In this document: in pieces, positions 8,654 to 40,154 of the stretch
Layout: each line of letters begins with the position of its first letter
How positions within the stretch are numbered: the first letter of the stretch is position 1
Assembly: GCA_963819655.1 (NCBI GenBank)
Contig: CAWFXA010000003.1
Location: 160,001-224,000, forward strand
Length of the DNA: 64,000 bases
Source of the DNA: an uncultured Chloroflexia bacterium
GTDB taxonomy: Bacteria; Chloroflexota; Limnocylindria; Limnocylindrales; CSP1-4
Direction: 5' to 3'
The notes under the pieces: model-generated
Told to the model about the DNA's origin: nothing
What the model saw: only the letters and a program-made list of their open reading frames with translations
Database searches by the model: none
Program-made: the position numbers and the translations under genes

Positions 8654-11600
8654 ATGCCGGCCGCTACTAAGCCGACGTCGGTGCTGATCCTCGGCAGCGG
8701 GCCCGTCGTCATCGGCCAGGCGGCGGAGTTCGACTATGCCGGCACGCAGGCCTGTCGCGCGCTGCGGGCGGAGGGTGTGCGCACGATCCTCGTCAACTCG
8801 AACCCGGCCACGATCATGACCGACCCCCAGGTCGCCGACGTCATCTACCTCGAGCCGCTGACGGTCGAGGCGGTCGAGGCGGTCATCGCCCGCGAGCGAC
8901 CCGACGGGGTCCTCGCGGGCCTTGGCGGCCAGACCGCCCTCAACCTGGCCATGGCGCTGGCGGAAGCCGGCGCCTTCGAGCGCTACGACGTCCGGCTCCT
9001 CGGGACGCCGCTCGAGGCCATCCGCATGGCCGAAGATCGCGAGGCGTTCCGCGACCTGCTCGACCGGATCGGCCAGCCGTATGCCCCGTCGTGGATCGTG
9101 GAGACGCCCGACGATGTCGAAACGGCCCTCCGAGAGATCGGGCTCCCGGCGATCGTGCGACCGGCGTTCACCCTCGGCGGGACCGGTGGCGGCATCGTCG
9201 AGACCGAGGCGGCCTACCGCGAACGCATCCGGGCCGGCCTGCGCGCGAGCCCCATCGGCCAGGTCATGGTCGAGCGCTGCCTCGTCGGTTGGCAGGAGAT
9301 CGAATACGAGGTCATGCGCGACGCCGACGACACGTGCATCGCCGTGTGCTCGATGGAGAACGTCGACCCGCTCGGCGTCCACACCGGCGATTCGATCGTC
9401 GTCGCGCCGGTCCAGACACTGACCGACGCCGTCCACCAGCGTCTCCGCAGCGCGGCGCTCGCGATCATCCGGGCGCTTGGCGTCGAGGGCGGCTGCAACG
9501 TCCAGTTCGCTCTCTCGCCCGACTCCACCGAGTACGCGGTCATCGAGGTCAACCCGCGCGTCTCGCGCTCCAGCGCGCTGGCGAGCAAGGCCACGGGCTA
9601 CCCGATCGCCCGGGTCGCGGCGCAGATCGCGGTCGGGCGGCGGCTCGCCGAGATCCCGAATGTCGTGACCGGCACGACGGTGGCCGCGTTCGAGCCGGCT
9701 CTCGACTACCTCGTCGTCAAGCTGCCACGCTTCCCGTTCGACAAGTTCCCGACCGCCGACCGCACGCTCGGCAGCCAGATGAAGGCCACGGGCGAAGTGA
9801 TGGCGATCGACCGCACGTTCGGCTCGGCGCTCAACAAGGCGCTCCGCGGCCTGGAGCAGGCCGGCGCCGGGCCGCTGGCCGAGGATCCGTCGTGGACGCC
9901 GGCGTTCGACTACCTGGCCGGGGTCTACGCCGGCGATCCCGACGAGGACGAGCCGATCCGCTGGGTCGACGACGACCGGTCAGGCCTGCGAATCGACCCG
10001 ACACGCGCAGAGGACCGCCGCCCCGATCGTGCTGCGGCGCTTCCTCGAGCCGTCCGACTCGCGGCTCTGGCGGCTCCTCGGGCTGCTACGGCGAGGCGTC
10101 CCGGAGGCCGTGGTGGGCGAGGCGACGGGGATCTCGGCATGGTTCCTCGCCGAGATGGGCCGCAATGTCGCGCTCGAACGGGAGGTCACCGTCGTGGGAT
10201 CGCGCCTGGCCGACCCCGAGGACGGCGGAGCCGCAGAGCTGCTCGCCACCGCGAAGCGCGCCGGGTTCGGTGACAAGGAGCTCGCCGGACTGGCCGGCAC
10301 GAGCCCGGAGGCGCTGCGGGACGCCCGCCTCGCCCTCGGTATCGTGCCGGGCTACGCCATGGTCGACACGTGCGCCGCCGAATTCGCGGCCGAGACCCCC
10401 TACTTCTACGCGACCTACGCTGCAGCCGGCTCGGCGCCGGAGGCGCCACCGGTCGATCGACCCGCGGCGCTCGTGATCGGCAGCGGCCCGGTCCGGATCG
10501 GGCAGGGGATCGAGTTCGACTACTGCGCAGTGCAGGCCGCCGACACGCTCCGACGCAATGGCTGGCAGGCGGTGATGATCAACTCGAACCCGGAGACCGT
10601 GTCGACCGACTTCGACGCGTCGTCGCGCCTCTATTTCGAGCCGCTCGACCCGGAGAGCGTGCGCAGTGTCATCGACGCGGAGGGCGGGATCCCGGCCATG
10701 GTCGCGTTCGGGGGCCAGACCCCGCTCAACCTTGCCGCGCCGCTCGTGGCTGGTGGCGTGCAACTGCTCGGATCGGATCTCGAGGCCATCGACCAGGCCG
10801 AGGAACGCGTGCGCTTCGCGGCTCTGCTCGACCGCCTCGGCATCCCGCAGCCCGAGGGCGGGATGGCACACAGCATCGAGGAGGCGCTGACGCTGGCCGA
10901 GCGGATCGGCTTCCCGGTCATCGTCCGGCCATCGTTCGTGATCGGCGGCCTGGCGATCGACTTCTGCTATTCGACCGAGGACCTCGAGCGCCAGCTCGCG
11001 CTGGCCACGGTCGTCGACCCGGATCGACCCGTCCGCATCGATCGCTATCTCGAGGGCGTCGAGGTCGATGTCGATGCCGTCAGCGACGGCGTGCGGGTAC
11101 TGATCCCCGGATTGCTCGAGCACGTCGAGCGGGCTGGTGTGCACTCCGGCGACAGCGTCGGCGTCTTCCCCCCGCAGTTCGTCAGCGAGGGCGACCAGGA
11201 CCTCATCGTTGCGACGATGGAACGGGTCGTGCTCGCCCTGGGCGCGAAGGGGCTCGTCAACGCCCAATTCATCGTCCGCGACGACGGCGTCTACCTGATC
11301 GAGGTCAACCCGCGGGCGTCGCGCACCGTGCCCTTCATGTCGAAGGTGACCGGCGTCCCGATGGTCGAACTGGCCGTCCGGATCGCGCTCGGGGCGACGC
11401 TCCCGGATCTCGGCTGGGACGGCGGGCTGCTGCCGACGCCGTCGTTCGTGGCCGTCAAGGCGCCAGCGTTCTCGACCGCGAAGCTGCGAGGGGTCGACCC
11501 ATCGGTCGGTCCTGGCATGCAGTCGACCGGCGAAGTCATCGGCCTGCACGAGGATCCGCGCGTCGCGCTGGCAAAGGCCCTGCTCGGGGCGGCGCTCGTG

Positions 11601-21145: not shown

Positions 21146-22358
21146 ATGGACGACGCCCGGCCACCTGCCTCGCCCGACCCGTCACGGCAGGGCCGCCTGT
21201 CCCCCGCGGACGCCGCCGCGCTGCTGGCGGAGGGCGACAGCCTCCTCGCTGCGGGCGACTACCCGGAGGCCGCCGTCCGATATGGGCGCGTGGTCGGTTT
21301 CGACGACGCGGCGGTCACGGCCGCCGCATTGCTCGGGCTAGGCGAGGCCCGGTTCCGCCTCGGTGAGGACGGCGCCGCCCTGGCGTCCTGGAAGGCCGTC
21401 CTGCAGGTCGGGGAGACGCCGTCGTCGTACCCGGCGTGGCGGAACATCGCGGCCGCCAACGTTCGTGACGGGGATCTCCAGTCGGCGATCAGCGCCTATC
21501 GCCAGGCCGAACGGCGGGCGCCGCCCGCCGACCGTCCCGAGATCGCGAACCGACTCGGCTGGTTGACCAAGGAGACCGGCGACGTCAACGGGGCGCGGCG
21601 CTACTTCGCCCGCGGTCGTGGCGATACGCAGGTGCTGTCCGTCACGACCGTGCTCATCGCGGCGACGGTCATCGTCTCGCTGACGGCGATCCTGTCGGCC
21701 GAGGGTCAGTTCCTGTACGACGCCTTCCAGCTCGACAAGCAGGCGGTGGCGGCCGGCGAATACTGGCGGCTGTTCACGGTGACGCTGTTGCACGGCAGCC
21801 CTGATCCGGGGTTCTTCGCCCCGTCGCTCCTGCACCTGTTCTTCAACATGTATGCCCTGTACCTCGCCGGGCCGATCGTCGAGCGCTGGTACGGGTCGCT
21901 GCGCTTCCTGATCTTCTACCTCGTCTGCGCGGCCGGCGGATCCGTCGCGAGCTTCGCGTTCGGTGGCGATCTCCCGTCGGTCGGCGCCTCAGGCGCCATC
22001 TTCGGGTCTGTTCGGGCTGTTGCTCGGCGCGAATCGCTTCCACCAGCCGGTCGATCGTCAGAGCCGGGCGCTCGTCCGACAGCTCGGGATGCTCATCGTC
22101 CTGAACATCCTGTTCGGCTTTGCTGTCCCGGGCATCGACAACGCCGCGCATCTTGGCGGCCTCGTCACCGGCCTGTGGCTCGGTGCGGTGATCCCGCCGA
22201 CCCGCGTCGACACGATGGGGTCGTACTGGCAGCAGGCGAAGGGGGCGGCTGGGGCGCATGTCGCTCGCGTCCCGATGGCCGTCCCGATCCTGGCGGTCGT
22301 CGCGGTCGCGGTCGTCGTGGTCGCAGGGCTGATGTACGGGACATCGATCCGGGCGTAG
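21146..22358 (+). CDS. TPR-rhomboid intramembrane serine protease (+1 frameshift near 22005)
   Basis: TPR helices followed by GEYWRL, HLFFNM, VGASGAIFG (Ser) and, in the next frame, AAHLGG (His). Confidence 0.85.
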
Positions 22359-27443: not shown

Positions 27444-28487
27444 TTGCGCGTCGAGCGGGTCATCCCGGGTCGACGCGTCTCGGGACGGCTGGCGGGCGCC
27501 GTCCTCACGCGCGACCTGACCGTCGGCGGCCGACGCTGGTCGAAGGGCCGCCGGCTGAGTCCCGATGACCTCTTGGCGCTCGCGGCCGAGGAGCCGGGTC
27601 CGCCTGTGACCGTGCTCGTCGCCGACGGCAACGAACTGCACGAGGACGAGGCCGCGCTGCGCCTTGCCAAGGCGATCGCGGGGCCGGGTCTCGAGGTCCG
27701 CGGTCCGAACCAGAGTCGCCTTGATCTGGTCGCCACGGCCGACGGCGTCGTCACCGTGCGGATCGGCGAGCTCGAGCGCGTCAATCGGCTCGATCCTTTG
27801 GAGGTGTTCACGGTCTATGACGGTCAGGTCGTCGAGCGCGGCGACCTCGTGGCGAGCGTGAAGGTGGCGCCACACCTGGTGGATGCGGCCGTGGTCGAGG
27901 CCGGCGCGCGCATCGCCGGGTTCGGCAGCCAGCCGATCGTGTGGGTCGCGCCGTTCGTGGCACGACGCGTGGGCATCGTCGTGAAGGAGTCGATCCGCGC
28001 GACGGCCAGGGAGCGGTTCGAGGCATCCGTCCGGGCGAAGGTCGAGGGTCTCGGGTCGGAGATCATCGACATCGTATACGTCGAGGACGACGCCGACGCG
28101 GTCGAGACGGCGGTCGGGCGGTTCACGCGGGGGGTGGACACGGCCGATCTCGTGCTGACCGCCGGATCCGCCAGCACGGACCCGGATGACGCCTTCTTCG
28201 TGGCGATCGCCGCACTGGGCGGGCGGGTGGTCCGGCGCGGCGTGCCGTCGCATCCCGGATCGATGTTGTGGCTGGCACGGGTGGGCGGCACCTCGATCCT
28301 GGGGCTGCCGACGTGCGGGGCGTATTCGAAGGCGACCGCGGCGGACCTGCTGATGCCACGGTTGCTGGCCGGCGAGCCAGCGTCCGAGGCGACTGTGGCG
28401 AAGCTCGGCCACGGCGGCATCCTCACGCGCGACCAGCGGTTCCGCTTCCCACGCTACGCGCGGGACCTCGACGCACCGGAAGGGTAG
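27444..28487 (+). CDS. Molybdopterin-binding MoeA/MogA-like protein
   Basis: LHEDEAA, TAGSASTDPDD, GVPSHPGSML, GLPTC; TTG start uncertain. Confidence 0.72.
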   Translation: MRVERVIPGRRVSGRLAGAVLTRDLTVGGRRWSKGRRLSPDDLLALAAEEPGPPVTVLVADGNELHEDEAALRLAKAIAGPGLEVRGPNQSRLDLVATADGVVTVRIGELERVNRLDPLEVFTVYDGQVVERGDLVASVKVAPHLVDAAVVEAGARIAGFGSQPIVWVAPFVARRVGIVVKESIRATARERFEASVRAKVEGLGSEIIDIVYVEDDADAVETAVGRFTRGVDTADLVLTAGSASTDPDDAFFVAIAALGGRVVRRGVPSHPGSMLWLARVGGTSILGLPTCGAYSKATAADLLMPRLLAGEPASEATVAKLGHGGILTRDQRFRFPRYARDLDAPEG

Positions 28488-28498
28488 GGAGGACACCG

Positions 28499-29014
28499 AT
28501 GGGAGAGGCGGACATCGCCGCGGCAATCAGCCGCGCCCGTGCGTATCTGACGGTGAACCCGACCGAAGCGCGGTACCGCGACGGCGCGGCGACCGCGTCG
28601 ATCGAGGATGGGCTGCGGGTGCGGGTCTCCGGCGCTGACGGCGCGTCGATCGTGACCGACATGGTCACGGGCATCGGTGGCGGCGGATCGGCGCCCAGCC
28701 CTGGTTGGATGTTTCGGGCCGCCTACGCGTCGTGCGTCGCGACGCTGATCGCGATGCGTGCCGCCGAGGAGGGGTGGGCGCTTGGGGCGCTCGAGGTCTC
28801 GGTCGACTCCGAGTCTGACGACCGAGGGATCCTGGCCACTGACGCCGGTGTTCCGGCGGGCCCGCTGAGTGTCCGCGTGGCGGTGACCGCCTCAGCCAAG
28901 GCCGCGGACAGTGCTGCGGTCCGGACAGCGATCGAGCAGGTAGTCCAGCGTTGTCCCGTCCACGATGCGGTGACGCGGGAGGTGCCCGTGGAAGTCGACG
29001 TTCGGGTGACGTGA
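28499..29014 (+). CDS. OsmC/Ohr family protein
   Basis: PSPG..F..A.ASC and CPVHD; GGAGG RBS. Confidence 0.85.
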   Translation: MGEADIAAAISRARAYLTVNPTEARYRDGAATASIEDGLRVRVSGADGASIVTDMVTGIGGGGSAPSPGWMFRAAYASCVATLIAMRAAEEGWALGALEVSVDSESDDRGILATDAGVPAGPLSVRVAVTASAKAADSAAVRTAIEQVVQRCPVHDAVTREVPVEVDVRVT

Positions 29015-29125
29015 CTCAATACCACCACTTTGTCTGCTTACCCCAGCGCGCAAAGAGCGCGTGCGAACGGCGGCATCATGAAGGTGCCTTCGATCGACTG
29101 GCACATATAGGAGTACCTCGGGCGC

Positions 29126-29491
29126 ATGGAACCGACCGTTAGGGACTTCCACACCGATCCGCCTTGGATAGAGGTCGACATCGGTGGAGGTCGGCTATCG
29201 ATCCTCTATGGGGCGACGTGCAACCCAGGTCCTTGGGACATCGAGTATCGAACCGAGTCGGGCGATAGATACTTGGCCTCGATCGCGACGATCGAAGACA
29301 TCGTCCGACTGATGGACGTCTGGAAGTCGACGGGCGAGTGCCTAAATGGCCGCTACTTCTGGACGTCGGACCTGATAATCGTCGATCAGCTGAACGCTAT
29401 CGCGATTGCCGACGTTGTTGAAGACCTCGTCAAGACCGGCGACATCAGAGGCGCGATGACACGGGCCGAGGACGACGAATCGTCAGACTAG
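29126..29491 (+). CDS. Hypothetical protein (acidic, immunity-protein-like)
   Basis: AGGAG RBS, lower GC, GEC..G.YFW..DLIIV motif. Confidence 0.6.
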   Translation: MEPTVRDFHTDPPWIEVDIGGGRLSILYGATCNPGPWDIEYRTESGDRYLASIATIEDIVRLMDVWKSTGECLNGRYFWTSDLIIVDQLNAIAIADVVEDLVKTGDIRGAMTRAEDDESSD

Positions 29492-29706
29492 CTCGGGTGA
29501 CCTTGCCGGACACTTAGCCATCAGGGCGTCCTTTCGGAGGATTTAGGGCTGAGGGAGCCCAGGGCGGTTGCTAGAGCGAGCCGCGAGGGGGTCGGTGTCG
29601 CCAGCCATACACCACAAGCCCTACGGCCTTCATCGGTGTTCGACACCGTCGGCGTCGACGAGGTCGAGGACTTCTAGCACAACCGTCCGTGGAGTAGTTT
29701 TCGCGC

Positions 29707-29988
29707 ATGTTCACGCACATCGCGATCCACACCCCCAAACCGGAACACCGCGACCACGTCATCGCCTCGATGCAACGAGCGGGCGCTGCAAGTGATGGTG
29801 CGGAAGGCCTCCTCCAGATGGGACCGTGGCAGGAGATCGACGGCGGCCGACTCGTCGGCCTCGCCATCTGGGAGTCGCGCGAGGCATTCCTCGCCGCGGC
29901 TCCGGGCATCTTCGCGGCTGTCGGCGACGACCCGTTCGACGAGTGGGAAGCCGAGCCGATCGTGAGCCTCCAGCTCGAGGAGGCCTAG
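29707..29988 (+). CDS. Antibiotic biosynthesis monooxygenase (ABM) domain protein
   Basis: 93 aa, AIWESREAF dimeric alpha-beta barrel pattern. Confidence 0.75.
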   Translation: MFTHIAIHTPKPEHRDHVIASMQRAGAASDGAEGLLQMGPWQEIDGGRLVGLAIWESREAFLAAAPGIFAAVGDDPFDEWEAEPIVSLQLEEA

Positions 29989-30080
29989 GCCGCAGGCATC
30001 GGGGCGGCTAACCCAACCGACCGAGGCCCAAGGGTTCTAACGAGCGCTCGCTGACGCGAGCGTCCGGTAGCCTGCGTCGT

Positions 30081-30956
30081 GTGATCGCCATGGCAATGCA
30101 GGCGTCAGAGGTACCGCGGGCGGTGGCTGCGGCCACGTCGACCGCCTCAGCCCTCGGCCTGAGGGTCGACGAGGCGATCGTTCTTCACGTCTCGAACAGG
30201 CTCGCGTTGCGCCTGCTGCCATCCGACGTTCTTGCGCGTGTGGCTCTCGCAACGCACGAGGCCGCAGAGCTCGAAGTCGAAGTCGCAACACGGCTGGCTG
30301 CAACGGACAGTCCCGTGGCGCTTCTCGATCCTCGAATGGCGCCGCGCGTCTACGAGCGCGACGGCTTCGCGATCACGCTCTGGACCTACTACGAGCCCCA
30401 ACCGGCTTGCGAGCTCTCACCAGCCGATTACGCTGACGCGCTCTCGCGGCTTCACGTCGGTATGCAGCACGTGGATGTCACCACGCCGCATTTCACGGAG
30501 CGCGTCAAGGAAGCTCAGCGAATCGTTGGAAACCGCGACCGGACTCCGGAGCTCGGCCAGGCGGACCGCGACCTTCTCGTGAGCACGTTCAGTCGCGTGA
30601 TGCGCGCGATCGCCGGGCGGGGCGCCGCGGAGCAGCTGCTGCACGGCGAGCCACACCCAGGGAACGTCCTCAACACCAAATACGGCCCGCTGTTCATTGA
30701 CCTCGAGACTTCGTGTCGCGGTCCGGTCGAATTCGACCTCGCCCATGTCCCGAAGGAGGTCAGCGAGTGCTACGCCGGCATCGATCAGGCACTGCTCGAC
30801 GATTGCCGCGTCCTCGTCCTTGCGATGGTCGCAGCCTGGCGGCTGGATCCTGAAGACCAGTTCCCGAGCGGAAGGCAGGCAGCCGTGGAGCTCCTCGCCG
30901 CTTTGTGGGCCGGTCCACCGTACCCGGCGCTCGGCGCCATCTCGGGCCTCAACTGA
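30081..30956 (+). CDS. Aminoglycoside phosphotransferase (APH/kinase-like) family protein
   Basis: LHGEPHPGNV and FIDLE motifs. Confidence 0.85.
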   Translation: MIAMAMQASEVPRAVAAATSTASALGLRVDEAIVLHVSNRLALRLLPSDVLARVALATHEAAELEVEVATRLAATDSPVALLDPRMAPRVYERDGFAITLWTYYEPQPACELSPADYADALSRLHVGMQHVDVTTPHFTERVKEAQRIVGNRDRTPELGQADRDLLVSTFSRVMRAIAGRGAAEQLLHGEPHPGNVLNTKYGPLFIDLETSCRGPVEFDLAHVPKEVSECYAGIDQALLDDCRVLVLAMVAAWRLDPEDQFPSGRQAAVELLAALWAGPPYPALGAISGLN

Positions 30957-31173
30957 GGCCGAGTCGAGCAGGGTCCGCACGCCAACCCGACATGTGACGT
31001 CCGGTAACGTCCGAGTCTAGGCCGCGACCGTCAGCCGCCGATGAATTGTCGGTGGCTCGTCGAGTGACATTTAGAGCACTCTGCCACCACGCGGTCACGT
31101 CACCAGCGATCCCGCTGGCCATCAAAGGGGCGTCGCCCGGACAGGCACGCTGGTCAAGGATGCAGGTCGGACG

Positions 31174-31677
31174 TCAGTAGTTGGGTTCCAGGCCCAGGGC
31201 CTTTCGCAGGATCTCCGCTTTGTCTGCCGCAGCGTCGGCCGCATCGTTGGCGGCCGCTGACAAGGAGATGGCCTCGGCGGGGCTATCGGCACGCGACGCC
31301 GCACGTGCTCGCTGCTGGAACGCGGTGTCGGCCTTGATGAGTGTCGTCGCAGCGGCCTGGACCTCAGGCGGAAATGCAATCTCCTTGACGCCATCGAGGA
31401 ATGTCGCGTCCGCCTCCGCGATCAATGCCCAATAGCGCTGGTGGTCCTTGAGTGACGCCCGAGGGTCGTAGAGCTCGTCGGCCCGCTCGATCGCGGCGTT
31501 GTAGGGCTCCGCGATGGCGGAATACGTCGCAGCGGCCTGTTCGAGCGTGAGGGATACGCCCTGGGACCCTGAAGGCACCACACTCGCTGTCACCGAGGGC
31601 GTCACTTGAGCCCGAGGGGCAGGAACGCACCCCAGCACCAGGAGCGCCAAGAAGACCACCGCACCTAGGTGGGCCAT
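31174..31677 (-). CDS. Helical lipoprotein
   Basis: Lipobox LVLGC, Ala-rich helices; 40 bp downstream of the dynamin gene. Confidence 0.65.
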   Translation of the reverse strand: MAHLGAVVFLALLVLGCVPAPRAQVTPSVTASVVPSGSQGVSLTLEQAAATYSAIAEPYNAAIERADELYDPRASLKDHQRYWALIAEADATFLDGVKEIAFPPEVQAAATTLIKADTAFQQRARAASRADSPAEAISLSAAANDAADAAADKAEILRKALGLEPNY

Positions 31678-31717
31678 CAGACCCTCTAAGCGTTGGTTGC
31701 GCGGTGGCTGGACAGCG

Positions 31718-33188
31718 TCACTGGGCGGCAGCGTGGATCTCCTCATAGGCGCGGCTGACGATCTCGGCCGCCTCGATCGTACGGCGGTCGCTCAACGGGT
31801 TGCCGGCCCGGCCGCGCCAGCGCTCGACACCCGCCAGAGCCGCGACGCGGACCTCGTCCGGGGACGCGCCGGCCGGCAGTCCGGCCCGCTCGGCATCCCG
31901 CCCCGACCCCCACAGCCGGCCGACCTCATCTCGCTCACTCGCGGCGAGCTCGAGATGGCCGGCGAGCACGAGATGCTGCAGCCGAAGGAGCGCCAGGGCG
32001 CCCGACGACGCCTCCAATCGATCGATCGCCTCCGTGACGTTCGCCGAGCCCGCAATGCCATCCCGTCCAAGCTTCGTCCCGATCGCCCGGAGCGCGACCA
32101 GCGCGGACCTCGCCTTCAGCAGGGTCGCCCGATCGCCGTATGCCTCGGCCAGCACCCGCTGCAAAGCGCGGATCCCGGACTGCTCCAGCAACGCCTCTGA
32201 CAATGCGGTCGCGCTCCGCACGCTCCCATCCGAGATCAGCCGGACCGCCAGGCGCACCCCATACAACCCGAGCCGGGCCAGCAGGTCCTCGCGGATCTCC
32301 TCGCCCAGCGGGTTGCGTTCCGGGTCGCGGAAACGCTCGACCGACGTCAACAAGTGATCCCGCGCGTCGGGCTCGAGCCGGACGAGCGCGCGCAGCCAGT
32401 CGAACTGTTCCTGGCGCAGCGTCGCGCCCGTCTCGGCGAGCAGGCCCGCCACGGGGAGCACGCCCGACGCGAGCTCGCGAACGCGGGGATCGGTCGCATA
32501 CCGTTCCGCGATCGACCGCGCCGAATCGAGCGCGTCCGGCCGTGCCGCGCCGATCTCGTCGGCGCGTGACAGCACCACGACCGCGTTGACCGGCGACGCC
32601 TGCGCGATCGAGTGGTCCATGAACGCCTCGAGGAAGCGCGCGTCGCCATGATGCAGATGGCGCATCAGGTAGACGACTGCGTCAGCCTCGGCCGGGCTGT
32701 CGACTCCCGCATCGAGCAACGAGGCGGTCGTGCGCATCGACGCCCGTTCGTCGGTCGAGCCGAGCCCCGGCGTATCGATCAGTGTCATCGACTCGAGCTT
32801 GGCCGATGGCCAGCCGACCTCGATGCGTTCGATCTCTTCGACTTCGCGCGTTCCGAGGTCGATCAGCTAGCTCGCCGTCCCGCCGTGTGAACTCGAGATC
32901 GGCGTGGCCCTCGGGCCGCAGGTCGGCGGTCACCCGATACCCGAGCCCGTGCCGGTACCACGTCACGATCCGGGTGCACTCCCCGGCGTCGGTGGCAGCC
33001 AGGCGCTCACCGACCAACGCGTTGAGCAGAGTCGACTTGCCGGCCTTCACGCGACCGGCGATCGCGACGCGGAGCGGTTCATCGAGGCGTCGAACGACGG
33101 CATCGACGGCCGCGGCCTGATCGGTCCCCCGGGCGACTCCCCGGGCCAACTCGGCGATCGCGCGGACCTCGGTCGCGAGATCGGTCAT
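31718..33188 (-). CDS. Bacterial dynamin-like GTPase, IniC-like (+1 frameshift near 32868)
   Basis: GRVKAGKSTLLNAL (G1), ECT (G2), DTPG (G3), SRADE (G4); split over ORFs 32682..33188 and 31718..32788. Confidence 0.85.
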
Positions 33189-33198
33189 CCGCGTCCGC

Positions 33199-35002
33199 CT
33201 ACGAAGGGAGGTCGAAACAGTTGCCGGTGTTCTGGATGACCGAGTGGTCGTGCCGCGCGACGAGGACGCACATCTGCGACGCGCCCGTGGGGCGATCGCT
33301 GACTTTGTAGCGGTCGAACGGCACCGGACCGTCGTACAGGATCCAGTTGCGGGAGTTGGCCGGCGTCCCGGCCTGGTCCGGCGGGATCGTGTCGAAGAAG
33401 AAGTGGATATGACGATCGAGAACGTCAGGCGAGAAGTTGAAGATGTCGTAGTCGACCAGATATGTGCCGCTGCTGACCGTGATGCCCGTGATCCGGGCCT
33501 GGCGACCGCCCGGGGTCGGGGTCGGCGTCGGCACGGTAGTCGGCGTCGGCGCGGCGGTCACGATCGGGCTCGGGGATGGCGTCACGGCGACGGACGGCGA
33601 AGCGGTGGGGATCGTCGCGACGGACGGTGCCGGGGACGGGGTGGCGGAGGCGCCGCCGAACATGCCGGACGAGGCCGCGACGGCGACCGCCCCGACCACT
33701 GCCATCCCGGCGATCGCCAGGCCTATGGGTAAGAGGTTCCGTGAGCCGCGGCCGCCGGGCGGCGGGGTCGGAGCGCCCGAGCCCCCCACGCCCGTTGCGG
33801 GCGTGTCCAGCGGGGGCGTCGGCGGGGACTCCTGCGGCGGCTCGGCGAGCGCGCCGGCAACGGCCGCGGTACCCGGGACCGCAACGGCCGCGACCGCAAC
33901 TGCCGCGACCCCGCCGACCTCCGTCGGCTCCGCCGCGACCCGCTGCTGCTCGGCCACGAACGCGGCGCCAAGGGCCATCGTGTGCTTCGGGTGTGCATCG
34001 ACCGCGACCGGCCGCCCGGTCGCCTCGCGCACCATCTCCTCGACGAGCGGGATCCGCGACGAGCCGCCGACGAGCAGGATCCGATCCACGTCCCCGAATC
34101 CAAAGCCGGCGCTGCGGGTCGCCCGGCCGAGTGCCTCGATCGTCTCGCGGATCCGGGGACGGATCATGTCCTCGAACTCCGCGCGCGTCAGGCGCATCTC
34201 GGTCTGCAGGCCAGGCAGGACGATCGGGATCGTCGCGTCGGTGTCCGACGACAGGGCCTCCTTGGCGCGACGACACTCGTCGCGGAGCCGGGCGATGGCG
34301 GCCATCGTCGCCGGGCTGGTTCGCATCGATCTGGACGCCCTGTGCGGTGGCGTGCTCGATCGCCCGCCGGAACAGCGCCTCATCGAAGTCGATGCCGCCG
34401 AGCCGCTCCAGCCCCTCCGGTTGACCAAGGAGCTCGAAACCCTCGTCGGTCTTGCGCAGGATCGTGGCGTCGAACGTCCCGCCACCGAAGTCGTAGACCG
34501 CCACGACCGAGCCGGACGGCACCCGCTCCTGGCGCGCGTAGTCGAGGGCGGCCGCCTCGGGCTCCGCCAGCAGCGAGACCTGGCCGATGTCGGCCTGTCG
34601 GACGGCCTGCTGGAGCAGGTCGAGCTTGTACGGCCCGTAGCTGGCCGGATGGCACAGGGCGATCGCCGCGGGCGGCTCCCCGAACTGCTGCGTGACCCGT
34701 GCGACGATCGAGCGCAGGAGGTGGGCGAGCAACGCCTCGGCTCCGTACGGGGTGCCGCCGAGGATGATCGGGGTCGGGTCGCCCAGGCGCCGCTTGAACT
34801 CGCGGCCCGTGCGCGTCGGTTCGGCGAGGGCTCGCCGCTCCGCGGCTTCGCCGACGAGGACCTCGCCGTCGGCACGCAGGAGCACGATCGACGGAATCGT
34901 CGCGGCGCGCTCGCCGAGTTGGAAGATCTCCAGTCGATCGCCGCGCGCGACCGCGGCCGCGGAGTACGTGGTCCCGAGGTCGATCCCGAGCGAGTAGGCC
35001 AT
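33199..35002 (-). CDS. Hsp70-family NBD fused to TM helix, Pro/Thr linker and extracytoplasmic domain (+1 frameshift near 34318)
   Basis: GIDLGTT, EPEAAA, YDFGGGTFD, LGGIDFD, LVGGSSRIP; no substrate-binding domain; TM LLPIGLAIAGMAVVGAVAVAA. Confidence 0.85.
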
Positions 35003-35161
35003 CAGTCCCTTCGATCGCTGGCAGGGCTCCCGAGTCTAGCGTGCGGGGCGCCGCGTGGGACGACCGATGAGACGTCGCGGCCGTCGTCGCGCGGCGCACG
35101 GGACACGTTCAGCGTGACGCCGGACGGTACACTCGCGGGCCGGAAGGAGGGACACACGCCG

Positions 35162-36966
35162 ATGCCGGCTGGGGTCATGGTCGCGCCCGCGACGGAGCAG
35201 CTCGATGCTGTCGTCGGCGACGTCCGCTCGATCGCTCGAAACCTCGATCGGGACGACCTTGCCGACCGGCTCGACGACATCCGGCGTCGGGCCGCGCGGA
35301 CGGACACCGTGGTCTGTGTGGTCGGCGAATTCAAGAAGGGCAAGAGCGCCCTCATCAACGCGCTGCTCGGCAGTGCGGTGTGCCCCGTCGACGACGATCT
35401 CGCGACGGCTGCCGTCACGGTCGTCCGCTACGGCGAGACGCCGAGCGCCACTAGTCCACCGCCGCGAGGGTGGCGAGTCGGTCGTCGAGCAGATCGAACC
35501 GACCGCCGTGCCCGACTGGGCGCAGGAGCCGGTCGGTCGTGAGCGTCGACCCCAGGTCGACCTCGTCGAGGTGCGCATCCCGAATCCGCTTCTCGAGGGC
35601 GGTCTCACGCTCGTCGACACACCGGGTGTCGGTGGCCTGAACGCCGGGCACGCCGCAGCGACGCTGGCCTTCCTCCCATCGGCCGATGCGCTCGTGTTCG
35701 TGACCGATGCGTCGGCTGAACTGTCGGGTCCGGAGCTGGAGTTCCTGGCCAGCGCCAGGGGCGCAGGCCCGCCGGTGCTCGTCGCCGTCACCAAGATCGA
35801 CATCTACCCGGCGTGGCGTCGCATCATCGACATCGATACCGGCCATCTGCAGGCGATCGGTTTCGCCGAACGGCCCTTCGGGCTGAGCGCGGCGCTTCGT
35901 GCCCGGGCCGATGAGCGGGACGACGAGAGCGGCTACGGGGCATTCTCCGAGGCTCTTCGTGGCGACGTCGTCGAGCGCGCCCGCGTGGCGAGCCTGGGCG
36001 CGGCGGTCGGCGACCTGCGCTGGGTCCTCGGGCAGCTGCGGGAGCCCCTCGTCGCCGAGCGAACAGCACTCGAACACCCGGAGCAGGCTGCCGCGATCGC
36101 CGCGGACCTCGCGGCCGTGCGCGAGCGGCTTGCGGCGTTGCGCCGAGCGGACGCCGCGTGGTCGACCCGGCTCGACGATGAGTTCGGCACCGTGCGCACG
36201 CGCGTCGCGTTCGGTTTCCAGCGCGACATGCGGACGATCCTGCGTGACGCGCAGGCCGAGATCGAGGGCACGGATCCGTCCGGGACGTGGCCGGAACTGA
36301 GCGCAAGGATCCAGGATCACATCGCGACTGCTGTCCGGGCGGCGTTCCGTGGCGCGACGACCGGCGCAGCCGATGTCCAGGCCACCATCGCTGACCTCCT
36401 GGCCGACGAGGAGCGCGGGTCCACCGACGCCGCGCCCTCGATCACGTTCGACGTCGGCGAGTTCTGGCGCGGTGACCCGGAGTTCGAGGGTCGGACGAAG
36501 TCGCGTCTGGGAGCCGGCTACGGCGTGGTGACCGGCGCCAAGGCCGGCGTCGAGCTGCTCGGTCTCGTCGGCACGCTGCTCGGTGCGGCGATCGTCGGGC
36601 CAGCCGTGCTCGGCGTGGCTGCGCTGTACGGCGGCAAGGAGGTCCTCGACGAGCGGCGCCGTCGTCTCACCGACCGCCGCCAGCAGGCGCGGAGCTTCCT
36701 CGCCGACCTCGTCGAGGAGATCGCCTTCCAGGTCGAGGGACGGCTGACCACGGTCCTCGACGAGATGCAGCGCCAGATGCGGGCACGCTTCACCGACCGG
36801 ATCGGTGAGCTGCATCGGACCGTCGGGGCGAGTGCCACCGCGCTGGAGCGTGCAGCGAAACGCGAAGTCGCGACCGCAACGCGCGCGCCAGGAGGAAGTC
36901 GATGCGACCCTCGACGAGATCGACGCGCTCCACGAGCGGGCGCGCGGGTTGCGGCCGGTGGTCTGA
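35162..36966 (+). CDS. Bacterial dynamin-like GTPase, IniA-like (+1 frameshifts near 35452 and 36875)
   Basis: GEFKKGKSALINAL, DTPGVGG, TKID, hydrophobic paddle LLGLVGTLLGAAIVGPAVLGVAALY, coiled coils. Confidence 0.85.
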
Positions 36967-37017
36967 CCCGAGGCGCCCGACCCCGTCGAAGGCCGCTGCG
37001 TGTAGCATCCTCGGACG

Positions 37018-37948
37018 ATGACCGACCTACCCGTCGGACCGCGACGACCGCCCGGCCGGCACGCGATCGATCGACGCGCTGACCGAGGAGTTCCGCAGCC
37101 GCGACTACATCACGGACCGCTCACTCGCGACCGCCGTGTTCCTTGCGTTGGAGCTCGGCCGCCCGCTGCTGCTCGAGGGAGAGGCCGGCGTCGGCAAGAC
37201 GGAGCTCGCCAAGGTCCTCGCGGCGTCACTCGGTGCGCGCCTGATCCGGCTGCAGTGCTACGAAGGCTTGGACGTCAACACGGCCGTCTACGAATGGAAC
37301 TACCCGCGCCAGATGCTGGAGATCCGGCTGCTCGAGGCGCGCGGCCAGGCCGAGCACGCCAGCGCCCACGACATCTTCGGGTCGGACTTCCTGATCCGCC
37401 GGCCGTTGCTGCAGGCGCTCGAGAGCGACGACGGCGTCGCGCCCGTCCTCCTGATCGACGAGATCGACCGGGCCGACGAGGAGTTCGAGGCGTACCTGCT
37501 CGAGATCCTGTCGGACTTCCAGGTCACGGTGCCGGAGATCGGCACGATCCGTGCCGAGAAGCCGCCGCGCGTGATCCTGACGTCGAACCGGACGCGCGAG
37601 GTCCACGACGCGCTCAAGCGCCGCTGTCTCTACCACTGGATCGACTATCCGACGGCCCAGAAGGAATACGAGATCGTGCTTGCGCGCGTTCCGGAGTCGC
37701 CGGAGCGCCTGGCGCGCGAGGTCGTCGGTTTCGTGCATCGACTGCGTGAGGCCGATCTGACCAAGGTCCCGGGCATCGCCGAGACGCTCGACTGGGCAGC
37801 CGCCTTGCTGTCGCTCGGCGCCCGTGAGCTCCGTCCCGACCTGGTCGACGAGACGCTCGGTGTCGTCCTCAAGTACGAGGAGGACATCCGCCACGTGCGC
37901 GGCGAACAGGCTGCCCGGATGCTCTCGGAGATCGCCGCTCGGGGCTAG
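37018..37948 (+). CDS. coxD: MoxR-family AAA+ ATPase CoxD (probable +1 frameshift in the 5' end)
   Basis: GEAGVGKT, RLQCYEG, LLIDEIDRADEEFEA, HDALKRRC. Confidence 0.88.
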
Positions 37949-37976
37949 CGACAGTAGCCAGGAGACAGAACGCCCG

Positions 37977-40154
37977 ATGACCTTCCCGGTCCAGGTCGGA
38001 CCGTCGACGATCACGATCAACCGCGACGACCGCGTCCTCGTCTCCCAGCCCGACGCGAGGGTGCTCGGCGAGTCAGACGGCTTCTTCACGCGCGACACGC
38101 GTTTCATCTCGGGCTACGACATGTGGATCAACGGGCGACGGCCGATCCTCCTCGCGTCGGGGCCCATCCAGTTCTTCTCGTCGCGGTTCGAGTTCACGAA
38201 CGAGGCGTCGGTCGATGCGGATGGCCCGATCGAACGCCAATCGCTCGCGCTGCGGATCGACCGGACCGTGGCGGATGCGGTGCACGAGGACATCGACCTC
38301 ACGAACTATGCACGCCGACCCGTGCGACTGACGATCGAGGTCGCGATCCTGTCGGACTTCGCCGACATCTTCGACGTGAAGGCGGGGCGGATCCTCCGGC
38401 GTGGCGAGGTCAACTCGCGCTGGTTCCGCTCCCGCGGTGAGCTCCGCACGACCTACGTGAACCGCGATTTCCGTCGGGACCTCGTCGTCGCGGTGGAGCG
38501 CGCCGGCTCGACCCCCCAGTTCGCCAACGGTCGCCTGGTCTTCGTCGCGAACATCCCTCCGAAAGGGACGTGGCACACCTGCCTGAAGTGGCTGCCGGTG
38601 ACCGGCGCGCACCGCCGGCCCCTCACACTGGCGTGCAACGCTGTCGATGCGCCGCTGCGCAAGATCGGTCGGACCACGCTGCCGAACGTCGCGATCCAGA
38701 CGCCGAACCAGGTCGTCGATCGCGCCTGGGACCAGGCCGTGCGCGATCTCGAGTCGTTGCGTCTCGAGGACCCGACGTTCGAGCGGGGCGTGTTCATCCC
38801 GGCAGCCGGGGTGCCGTGGTTCGTGACGCTGTTCGGACGTGACTCGCTGATCGTGTCGATGCAGGGGATCTCCGGCTTCCCGGAGTTCGCGGCCGGCGCT
38901 TTGCGGCGCCTGTCGGGTTTGCAGGCCACGAGCGACGACCCCGAACGCGACATGGAGCCCGGCAAGATCCCCCATGAGATCCGGCACGGCGAGCTTGCCC
39001 AGCTCGGGATCCTGCCGTATCAGCCGTACTACGGGACGCACGACGCGACCAGCCTCTTCGTGATCGTCCTGTCCTACCTCTATCACTGGACAGGCGACGC
39101 GAGCATCCTGCGCCGGTTCCTCCCGAATGCGGAAGCGGCGATGGCCTGGATCGACCGCTACGGGGATCGTGACAGCGACGGTTTCCAGGAGTACAAGACG
39201 CGGTCGTCGCACGGGTACTACAACCAGGGCTGGAAGGACGCGGGCGACGCGATCGTCGAGGCGGATGGCACGTTGGCAGCGCTCCCGATCGCCACGTGCG
39301 AGCTGCAGGGCTACGTGTTCGACGCGAAGAACCGGATGGCGGACGTGTACGAGGCGCTCGACCGGCCGAAGGACGCGCGCCGACTCCGCCGCCAGGCGCA
39401 GCGCCTCTACGAACGCGTGAACGAGACGCTCTGGTGGGAGGAGGAGGGCACGTACTACCTCGGGCTCAATGGCCGCAAGGAACCGATCCGGAGCGTCGCC
39501 TCGAACGCCGGTCATCTCCTCCAGTCGGGGATCGTCCCACCGGAGCGCGCCGGTCGCGTCGTGAAGCGCCTGATGGCCGACGACATGTGGTCTGGCTGGG
39601 GCGTCCGGACGCTGTCGTCCGCACACCCCGCGTACAACCCGTTCTCCTATCAGACCGGCTCTGTGTGGCCACACGACAACGCGTCGATCGCCGGCGGGTT
39701 CCGCCGGTACGGCTACGCGGCCGAGGCGGCCCAGGTCGCCAAAGGCATCTTCGATGCCGCGGAACGGCTGGTCGGTCTGCGGCTCCCCGAACTGTTCTCG
39801 GGCCTCCCGCGAGTGCCGGCCAGCTTTCCTGTGCCGTACCTCGGCGCGAACGTCCCGCAGGCATGGGCGGCCGGCTCGGTCTTCCGGTTCGTCGCGATCC
39901 TGTGCGGGCTGCACGCGACCGTCGATGCCGACGGGTCCAAGCTCTATGTCAACCCGGCACTCCCGGACTGGCTGCCCGAGATCACGATCCAGAACCTGCG
40001 GTTGGGGACCGGCTCGATGGCGATCCGTTTCGCCGACGGCGACGCCGAGGTGCTCTCGAACACGTCCGGCTATCGCGTCGTGCACGGACCCGCGCCCGGG
40101 CCATTCGGCAGTCGCGGCGCGGTCGTGGCAGAGTCACCGCATGCAGGCGCCTGA
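37977..40154 (+). CDS. Amylo-alpha-1,6-glucosidase / glycogen debranching enzyme (GDE N-terminal domain + (alpha/alpha)6 barrel)
   Basis: DTRFIS, AGVPWF.TLFGRD, PGKIPHE, NQGWKDA, Y.GSVWPHDN, LPELF; AGGAG upstream. Confidence 0.9.
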   Translation: MTFPVQVGPSTITINRDDRVLVSQPDARVLGESDGFFTRDTRFISGYDMWINGRRPILLASGPIQFFSSRFEFTNEASVDADGPIERQSLALRIDRTVADAVHEDIDLTNYARRPVRLTIEVAILSDFADIFDVKAGRILRRGEVNSRWFRSRGELRTTYVNRDFRRDLVVAVERAGSTPQFANGRLVFVANIPPKGTWHTCLKWLPVTGAHRRPLTLACNAVDAPLRKIGRTTLPNVAIQTPNQVVDRAWDQAVRDLESLRLEDPTFERGVFIPAAGVPWFVTLFGRDSLIVSMQGISGFPEFAAGALRRLSGLQATSDDPERDMEPGKIPHEIRHGELAQLGILPYQPYYGTHDATSLFVIVLSYLYHWTGDASILRRFLPNAEAAMAWIDRYGDRDSDGFQEYKTRSSHGYYNQGWKDAGDAIVEADGTLAALPIATCELQGYVFDAKNRMADVYEALDRPKDARRLRRQAQRLYERVNETLWWEEEGTYYLGLNGRKEPIRSVASNAGHLLQSGIVPPERAGRVVKRLMADDMWSGWGVRTLSSAHPAYNPFSYQTGSVWPHDNASIAGGFRRYGYAAEAAQVAKGIFDAAERLVGLRLPELFSGLPRVPASFPVPYLGANVPQAWAAGSVFRFVAILCGLHATVDADGSKLYVNPALPDWLPEITIQNLRLGTGSMAIRFADGDAEVLSNTSGYRVVHGPAPGPFGSRGAVVAESPHAGA

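Follow-up and report, generated by a model that had tools for sequence, protein, structure and literature searches.

The stretch of DNA analysed here, 64,000 nucleotides from an uncultured Chloroflexia bacterium (assembly GCA_963819655.1, contig CAWFXA010000003.1, positions 160,001 to 224,000 of the forward strand; the window, below), carries a locus encoding two dynamin-family GTPases, one IniA-like and one IniC-like, together with a membrane-spanning Hsp70-like ATPase. In our assessment it is rather probable that an accessory block here carries a conserved membrane module of three genes in an intact or almost intact copy, that the ATPase grips the tail of the IniC-type protein and thereby tethers or controls the dynamin pair, and that the breaks in the reading frames are assembly errors. 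The two dynamins represent the IniA/IniC kind that has already been described; what is unusual is their third companion, the Hsp70-like protein. The genome comprises 3.49 Mb in three contigs, and the GC content of the window is 70%. Judged by the names of close protein relatives and related contigs, the host appears to be one of the Chloroflexota, of the Limnocylindria type, and not an actinobacterium.

Mycobacterial dynamins of the IniA/IniC type have been tied to drug tolerance, membrane fission, and vesicle release, and we know of neither a recruiter that brings the soluble partner to the membrane nor a switch for the pair. The Hsp70-like ATPase, which is conserved beside such dynamins in several phyla, is a candidate for this missing control element, and the interface predicted for it involves the C-terminal tail of IniC-type proteins, for which there has been no other explanation. 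A literature search, with subscription journals and closed supplements outside its reach, found no paper on a trio of IniA/IniC-type dynamins and an Hsp70-like protein. What is new here is the co-fold of the ATPase onto the IniC-like tail, an uncharacterised outside domain that is brought to light as common to receptor kinases, the empty-site evidence for the accessory block, the exclusion of a neighbouring lipoprotein from the module, and the reading of the frameshifts.

Components of the Module

The order, strands, and spacing of the genes are as an earlier note, made from the sequence alone, had them (Table 1). The Hsp70-like and IniC-like genes are separated by 10 bp (33189-33198), the IniC-like gene and a lipoprotein-like open reading frame (ORF) by 40 bp (31678-31717, measured from the MAH... 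start of the latter), and the Hsp70-like and IniA-like genes diverge from a shared region that measures 159 bp (35003-35161).

Once read through its breaks, the IniA-like protein is about 600 residues long. Its sequence contains the G-domain motifs GEFKxGKS, DTPG, and TKxD and, near the C-terminal third, a hydrophobic hairpin of about 35 residues (...GVELLGLVGTLLGAAIVGPAVLGVAALYGG...). Pfam Dynamin_N matches the intact orthologue from G024, a genome of the same genus, with E=1.6e-23, and a phmmer search of the PDB aligned residues 38-595 of 614 with residues 14-580 of the Mycobacterium smegmatis IniA chain 6J72 (E=6.4e-67). By tblastn, query residues 14-110 and 112-584 are covered without stop codons. 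With a dynamin G domain and full-length similarity to IniA, the protein is, on sequence grounds, of the IniA type.

The IniC-like protein, about 489 residues once read through, consists of a G domain (Dynamin_N, E=1.3e-10) followed by a helical C-terminal region. The P-loop motif GRxKAGKST as well as DTPG and SRxD are invariant in the family alignment (A1), there is no hydrophobic stretch in the sequence, and tblastn covers query residues 1-107 and 108-487 without stops. Although the mean predicted local distance difference test score (pLDDT) of the model is only 68.4, the C-terminal helices (residues 295-486) reach 80-93. Against solved dynamins the similarity is confined to the G domain, with a match to IniA of E=3e-7 in the PDB, where IniA is the only one of the two proteins present. 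A Foldseek search with the same model, of moderate confidence, returned nothing at E<=0.001, the weak top rows being mitofusin, bacterial dynamin-like protein (BDLP), LeoA, and IniA, and a look-up in the ESM Atlas returned only clusters labelled as GTPase or dynamin family, none named IniC. According to PMC10240201, IniC is the smaller protein, lacks the lipid-binding sequence, carries an extra C-terminal helical tail, and is required together with IniA. The protein described here appears to fit that account in its size (about 490 versus about 600 residues), its missing hydrophobic stretch, and its helical tail, a likeness to the published description rather than to an IniC sequence.

The third protein combines an N-terminal ATPase domain of the Hsp70 type with an Ala/Pro-rich linker, a single transmembrane helix, a Pro/Thr/Ser linker, and a domain of about 105 residues outside the cytoplasm. 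Pfam HSP70 matches it with E=2e-53 over profile positions 105-372 of 599 only, and DnaK chains in the PDB match residues 3-348 only (2V7Y, E=4.6e-45). The ATPase motif residues D8, G10-T12, K70, E147, D171, G173-T176, and D178 are invariant in 21 orthologues. Canonical DnaK is about 33-36% identical to the ATPase domain, and the NCBIfam scores, about 180 bits, fall well short of the cut-offs of 650-820 bits for DnaK and HscA. We considered whether the protein could be a canonical Hsp70 chaperone (DnaK/HscA) and rejected this assignment: the nucleotide-binding domain is present, but the substrate-binding beta-sandwich and lid are absent, and the matches end at about residue 350.

No Pfam family covers the outside domain. 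In an alignment of 20 sequences (A2) it is marked by an invariant HxH and a third histidine, two cysteines, a tryptophan, and an AG motif, with the overall pattern HxHFFFDT...AG...C...DHS...GNC; the histidine triad suggests the binding of a metal or another ligand. The AlphaFold2 model (pLDDT 86.6) is a beta-sandwich of six strands. Foldseek found nothing in the PDB at E<=0.001, the best row being the SKICH domain of NDP52 (TM-score 0.53), and a wide VIA-align search gave generic FN3-type rows only, at best with Z 6.8 and a root-mean-square deviation of 4.3 over 91 aligned residues. The modelled fold is thus a generic FN3/Ig-like beta-sandwich, from which no function follows.

A profile search of longer proteins yielded 321 carriers of this domain. 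Among the 120 carriers listed, 63 have an HSP70 domain, 40 a protein-kinase domain, and 5 a META domain, while 12 lack any Pfam domain. In two Ser/Thr kinases that we inspected, the kinase domain and a transmembrane helix are followed by two tandem copies of the outside domain, which occurs there at 50-54% identity. By analogy with the architecture of receptor sensor domains, we regard it as a sensor-type domain. Among proteins P0121-P0166, the domain is found in two tandem copies on many receptor Ser/Thr kinases, and also on small META-domain proteins.

Predicted Binding of the ATPase to the IniC-Like Tail

The earlier note had proposed co-folding of the proteins, and this was carried out with the intact G024 orthologues, pairing residues 1-365 of the Hsp70-like protein, its ATPase domain (21-row alignment), with the IniC-like protein (13-row alignment). 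The pair scored an ipSAE of 0.82 (0.81-0.85 in three runs), whereas the best of three controls scored 0.00. The runs share at least 93% of their contacts, and the pLDDT of the partner is at least 88. In the calibration of the tool, 116 of 157 solved complexes and 2 of 215 mismatched pairs attained this mark, counts that apply here only approximately because our own alignments were supplied.

At the predicted interface, ATPase residues 58-85 and 194-240 face residues 370-395 and 450-487 of the IniC-like protein. Eight IniC-like residues that are invariant in the family lie there: R457, P463, D466, R467, E471, E474, R478, and E481. The two ATPase stretches belong to what we take to be lobes IB and IIB in DnaK numbering. 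In DnaK, these lobes are the binding place of exchange factors of the GrpE and BAG types. The co-fold supports, as a prediction, binding of the ATPase domain to the helices at the C-terminal end of the IniC-like protein.

Coupling of an external signal to the dynamins by the ATPase, as the earlier note envisaged it, receives computational support at both ends, namely from an outside domain that is common to receptor Ser/Thr kinases and from the modelled contact between the ATPase and the IniC-like protein; the coupling itself keeps the standing of a proposal.

Conservation of the Trio

Related loci were collected from the genome collection with the IniC-like alignment as query (the best 80 of 543 confirmed) and searched with the proteins of G024, which are intact; those with 6 kb or more of upstream sequence, 56 in all, form the full-flank subset. 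An Hsp70-like gene was counted at 45% identity or more over at least 200 residues of the ATPase domain. The IniA-like gene is present in 55 of the 56 full-flank loci and the Hsp70-like gene in 43, and the same outside domain occurs in 23. Carriers include Chloroflexota, Acidimicrobiia, cultured Actinomycetes (Pseudonocardia, Actinoplanes, and Krasilnikovia), and one metagenome-assembled genome (MAG) of the Acidobacteria.

Two gene orders are found. Fifteen loci of the Limnocylindria type have, like the window, the IniA-like gene divergent from an Hsp70-like and IniC-like gene pair, in that order. In most other loci (Acidimicrobiia, the cultured Actinomycetes, the Acidobacteria MAG, and Thermomicrobiales) the IniA-like and IniC-like genes lie in tandem, and the Hsp70-like gene is usually found 2-5 kb upstream on the opposite strand or just downstream. 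These sequence comparisons support the dynamin pair and the membrane-spanning Hsp70-like ATPase as a conserved gene module. The Hsp70-like partners in the tandem-type loci (L043-L103) range from 571 to 887 residues and have dissimilar C-terminal regions; the outside part of these proteins seems to be exchangeable between lineages.

The earlier note had counted the lipoprotein as a fourth component. The trio holds up among the related loci, but the lipoprotein does not: homologues stand behind the IniC-like gene in only 3 of the 80 loci (L027, L029, and L048), 2 of them in the full-flank subset, and it is missing from the loci of G024 and of G020, another genome of the genus. The ORF has a signal peptide and a lipobox and no match in Pfam, NCBIfam, or PADLOC; it is a lineage-specific neighbour outside the conserved module. 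Among 13 loci with the gene order of the window, no other conserved fourth gene was found, only flanks of a cox-type cluster (coxD in 8, the MoCF-binding gene in 6).

A second adjacent pair of Dynamin_N genes lies elsewhere in the same genome (G000:C3:633530-635349), so the pair in the window is an extra, accessory one. In the search that found the Hsp70-like gene of the window, no Hsp70-like match was listed near this second pair.

Proposed Mechanism and Comparison with Known Systems

We propose a module of three proteins: an IniA-type GTPase whose hairpin would insert into the membrane, an IniC-type partner that is soluble, and a dedicated Hsp70-like protein that crosses the membrane once. 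The ATPase domain of this last protein, lacking a substrate clamp, would lie in the cytoplasm, and its small beta-sandwich of the sensor type would lie outside. By gripping the helical tail of the IniC-type protein, as predicted, the Hsp70-like protein could anchor this soluble partner to the membrane. The time at which the dynamin pair assembles might then depend on the ATP state of the Hsp70-like protein, which a signal at the outside domain may set, and the assembled pair could reshape or reseal the cytoplasmic membrane when the envelope is stressed. More tentatively, and on the doubtful side as we see it, the Hsp70-like protein could be a new kind of transmembrane transducer. In such a protein, the outside domain, perhaps binding a metal or an envelope ligand through its histidine triad, would control the nucleotide state of the ATPase, the IniC-type tail would clamp the lobes as an exchange factor does, and ATP turnover would gate the assembly of IniA and IniC at damaged membrane. 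If this were true, the transducer would be a bacterial parallel of the interplay of Hsc70 and dynamin in eukaryotic endocytosis.

The closest known counterparts of the pair are IniA and IniC of the mycobacterial iniBAC operon; for IniA, PMC6715688 describes GTP-dependent membrane fission. The larger protein of the pair is a full-length homologue of M. smegmatis IniA with a hydrophobic segment that may interact with the membrane, and most related loci hold the two dynamin genes in tandem and co-oriented, as iniA and iniC are. The trio differs in adding a dedicated third component, the membrane-anchored Hsp70-like ATPase, whose gene occupies the place beside the dynamins. It also differs in the gene order of the clade of the window, in which the Hsp70-like gene lies between the dynamin genes and the IniA-like gene is divergent, and in its host, here a MAG of the Chloroflexota type. 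A pair of dynamin-like proteins (DLPs) encoded side by side is the usual arrangement in bacteria according to PMC6104087, in which Hsp70 occurs as an item of the reference list only. Like Nostoc BDLP, Campylobacter DLP1/DLP2, Streptomyces DynA/DynB, and Bacillus subtilis DynA, the pair is adjacent, with one putatively membrane-binding and one soluble member, and its G domains match those of BDLP (2J68) and Cj-DLP (5OWV). Unlike those systems, which are described without an Hsp70-like partner, it has one, and its similarity to them outside the G domain is weak.

The Hsp70-like protein resembles canonical Hsp70s (DnaK/HscA) in its complete nucleotide-binding domain with invariant phosphate-binding and catalytic motifs. 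It also recalls their complexes with exchange factors, since in the prediction the helices of the partner make contact with the ATPase at two distinct stretches. It departs from them in having a linker, one transmembrane helix, and an outside domain in place of the substrate-binding domain and lid. With receptor Ser/Thr kinases of the PknB type it shares the succession of an outside sensor domain, one transmembrane helix, and a cytoplasmic enzyme, and kinases of this kind carry the same outside domain in tandem. In contrast to them, the cytoplasmic output is an ATPase of the Hsp70 fold, and the outside domain is not PASTA.

Breaks in the Reading Frames

Three genomes of the same genus, G020, G021, and G024, carry the orthologous locus in synteny. 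A four-way DNA alignment places single-base insertions found only in the window at about 32868, 34318, 35452, and 36874, and all three other genomes lack the extra base at all four sites. The frameshifts on which the earlier note remarked are therefore genuine features of the window sequence. In the same alignment, the IniC-like and Hsp70-like genes of G021 carry five other single-base insertions, peculiar to that genome; both genes are unbroken in G020 and G024.

The window was also aligned over 41.6 kb with both G021 and G024, and a codon-phase test was applied to this three-way alignment. Shifts inside coding sequences that are specific to the window number four in the locus and two outside it, one at 9974 and the other, at 22006, within a rhomboid gene; G021 has five or six inside the locus and four outside, and G024 has none inside and at least seven outside. 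Nearly all of these shifts, in all three assemblies, are insertions of one base. Compared with the G024 proteins by tblastn, the window copies are full length and 67-90% identical, with no stop codon or larger deletion.

Contigs from four metagenome runs of four studies, which are 94-98% identical to the locus and represent related populations, provide a further comparison. One letter is missing relative to the window at 32868 in contigs X2 and X3, at 34313/15 in X9 and X2, at 35452/3 in X1, X3, and X9, at 36874/6 in X3 and X9, and at 37033/4, the start of coxD, in X1, X2, and X3. As far as such comparisons of sequence reach, the four breaks probably arose as consensus or insertion errors when the long reads of a metagenome were assembled, and not through decay of the genes. 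In a mixed population the read depth over an accessory block is probably lower, which may have raised the rate of consensus errors there. Gene breaks in long-read MAGs of this group should accordingly not be read as pseudogenes without the reads. Single-base shifts, mostly of +1, are scattered through conserved genes such as the rhomboid gene and coxD, both in the window (9974, 22006, and 37033) and in two few-contig assemblies of the same genus (L013 and L015-L023).

Alternative Explanations

Several findings weigh against an intact, functional module, and some of them favour a decaying remnant, in which all four frameshifts would be real and all three genes pseudogenes. The locus has four shifts in about 5.2 kb against two in the remaining ~36 kb aligned, a density about 9-13-fold that of the flanks, with a binomial estimate of about 0.003-0.006 for the enrichment that is post hoc. 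G021 is likewise enriched in the same genes, at different sites; the rpoB and rpoC genes (8.2 kb) of the genome to which the window belongs are unbroken, so the genome-wide error rate is lower than that in the locus; and most genomes of the genus lack the module, so that its loss would be common. Among the contigs, the omission at 34313/15 and 36874/6 is seen in part of the depth only (for example, 15.1 of 34.8 in X2 and 3.76 of 8.96 in X9), X3 has the letter missing at 34313 in 0 of its 27.3 depth, and even the best public runs contain no more than 0.20 of the sequence words of the stretch. We nevertheless judge decay unlikely. All four events are single-base insertions; the same +1 type accounts for the events of the window outside the locus and for the majority of events in the two sister assemblies. 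This uniformity is a technical signature, unlike the mixture of deletions and stops expected of decay. The copies are moreover conserved over their full length, and the contigs of the four other studies are without the extra bases. Further reservations concern the mechanism, which rests on gene order and one co-fold; the co-fold was made with the intact orthologues rather than the broken copies of the window and covers the Hsp70-like and IniC-like pair only, and the outside domain has no known ligand and a generic beta-sandwich fold.

Another possibility is that the Hsp70-like gene is a mere neighbour, encoding a membrane-anchored ATPase of the actin/Hsp70 fold with a role of its own, such as the handling of envelope proteins, and no tie to the dynamins. 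Gene neighbourhood alone is weak evidence. In tandem-type loci a distance of 2-5 kb separates the gene, on the opposite strand, from the dynamins, or the flank is without it; 13 of the 56 full-flank loci have none within 8 kb. Because the loci are related to one another and were selected by similarity to the IniC-like protein, and because L048 appears to repeat the stretch of L015, the counts make the loci seem more independent than they are. Yet the association outlasts changes of gene order across several phyla, with the gene between the dynamins in 15 loci and divergent, upstream, or downstream elsewhere, the co-fold stands far above its controls with invariant residues at the predicted interface, and both divergent transcription units have the same -10-like box. 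We regard a chance neighbourhood as very improbable. A role of the trio in anti-phage defence is also improbable, if less so: as in Eleos/LeoABC systems or B. subtilis DynA, the outside domain or membrane damage would report infection, and the dynamins would seal the membrane or delay lysis. The patchy, accessory distribution of the module would fit this role, as would the C-terminal domains of the Hsp70-like proteins, which differ among related loci in a pattern known from conflict systems; the title of one paper (PMC12998192) ties membrane binding by DynA to phage defence. Two dynamin-family proteins are encoded together in Eleos/LeoABC as well, and in PADLOC, a library without curated cut-offs, the IniA-like protein matches LeoA (E=5.8e-17) and LeoBC (E=8.3e-17, over residues 262-578). 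These matches are partial and much weaker than that to IniA, however; the IniC-like protein matches LeoA around the P-loop only (E=2e-11), and the Hsp70-like protein, a component that the LeoABC system lacks, has no PADLOC match. No defence-related Pfam domain was found among the neighbouring genes scanned, and in 8-9 of 13 related loci the module keeps one position within the cox cluster, behaviour unlike that of a rapidly moving defence island. Defence would still be compatible with a membrane-remodelling module, because membrane repair can itself protect against phage.

The Accessory Block and Its Control Region

The block of 8.55 kb that contains the module (Table 1) has genes of the CoxS, CoxL, and CoxM types and a MoCF-binding gene on its left and, by Pfam, genes for a MoxR/CoxD-type ATPase, a VWA_CoxE protein, and a MobA-like protein on its right. 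Within it lie an OsmC-like gene, small ORFs in a stretch of 62% GC, an APH-type kinase gene, the lipoprotein-like ORF, and the trio. In all five of the module-less genomes of the same genus that were tested, the homologues of the sequences at 28484 and 37037 are 35-253 bp apart rather than 8.55 kb, and an orthologue of the Hsp70-like gene occurs in 3 of 24 other genomes of the genus and in none of 16 genomes of the sister family. On this comparison of sequences, the block is accessory and has been inserted into a molybdoenzyme cluster of the cox type, in agreement with the placement among molybdoenzyme genes that the earlier note had given.

Table 1. Coordinates of the features of the accessory block and the module in the window
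Feature	Position	Strand	Remarks
Accessory block, 8.55 kb	28485-37036		Between the MoCF-binding gene and coxD (MoxR-type)
Lipoprotein-like ORF	31174-31677	-	Signal peptide and LVLGC lipobox; MAH... start at 31677
IniC-like dynamin gene	31718-33188	-	Pfam Dynamin_N; +1 insertion near 32868
Hsp70-like gene	33199-35002	-	Pfam HSP70 on both halves of the split gene
Extracytoplasmic C-terminal domain of the Hsp70-like protein, ~105 residues	33202-33531	-	Beta-sandwich at 33202-33507; alignment A2 and AlphaFold2 model
Transmembrane helix of the Hsp70-like protein, single	33673-33735	-	Between the Ala/Pro-rich and Pro/Thr/Ser linkers
ATPase domain of the Hsp70-like protein	33958-35002	-	+1 insertion near 34318
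-10-like box toward the Hsp70-like gene (putative promoter)	35030-35038		CCGAGTCTA, reads TAGACTCGG in that direction
-10-like box toward the IniA-like gene (putative promoter)	35128-35135		TACACTCG
IniA-like dynamin gene	35162-36966	+	Each piece matched by Pfam Dynamin_N; frame broken by +1 insertions near 35452 and 36874

The divergent region has a -10-like box toward each of the two transcription units, and a ribosome-binding stretch rich in purines comes after each box. When the window and 15 related loci are aligned, 16 sequences in all, the 80% consensus retains the box: TA.ACTCGG precedes the start of the Hsp70-like gene, and its reverse complement lies opposite. We infer from this arrangement that the boxes are putative promoters. 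The motif TA[C/G]ACTCGG has 22 copies in the genome. A simple scan of 31000-37200 for sigma-70 promoters found nothing, and the single terminator-like site in that range is within chance. A third CCGAGTCTA box lies at 31011-31019 on the minus strand, just past the lipoprotein-like ORF and facing the 3' end of the APH-type kinase gene.

A segment of lower GC content within the block (29000-31100, about 62-66%) contains small unknown ORFs, an ABM-like ORF of 93 residues, and the APH-type phosphotransferase gene. It is absent from the G024 locus and therefore seems to have entered the accessory block later, as a second insertion. Beyond the block, a gene for a glycoside hydrolase of the GDE_N_bis/MGH1-like kind (37761-40151, plus strand) lies between coxD (MoxR-type) and coxE (VWA_CoxE), a position at which it is absent in G020.

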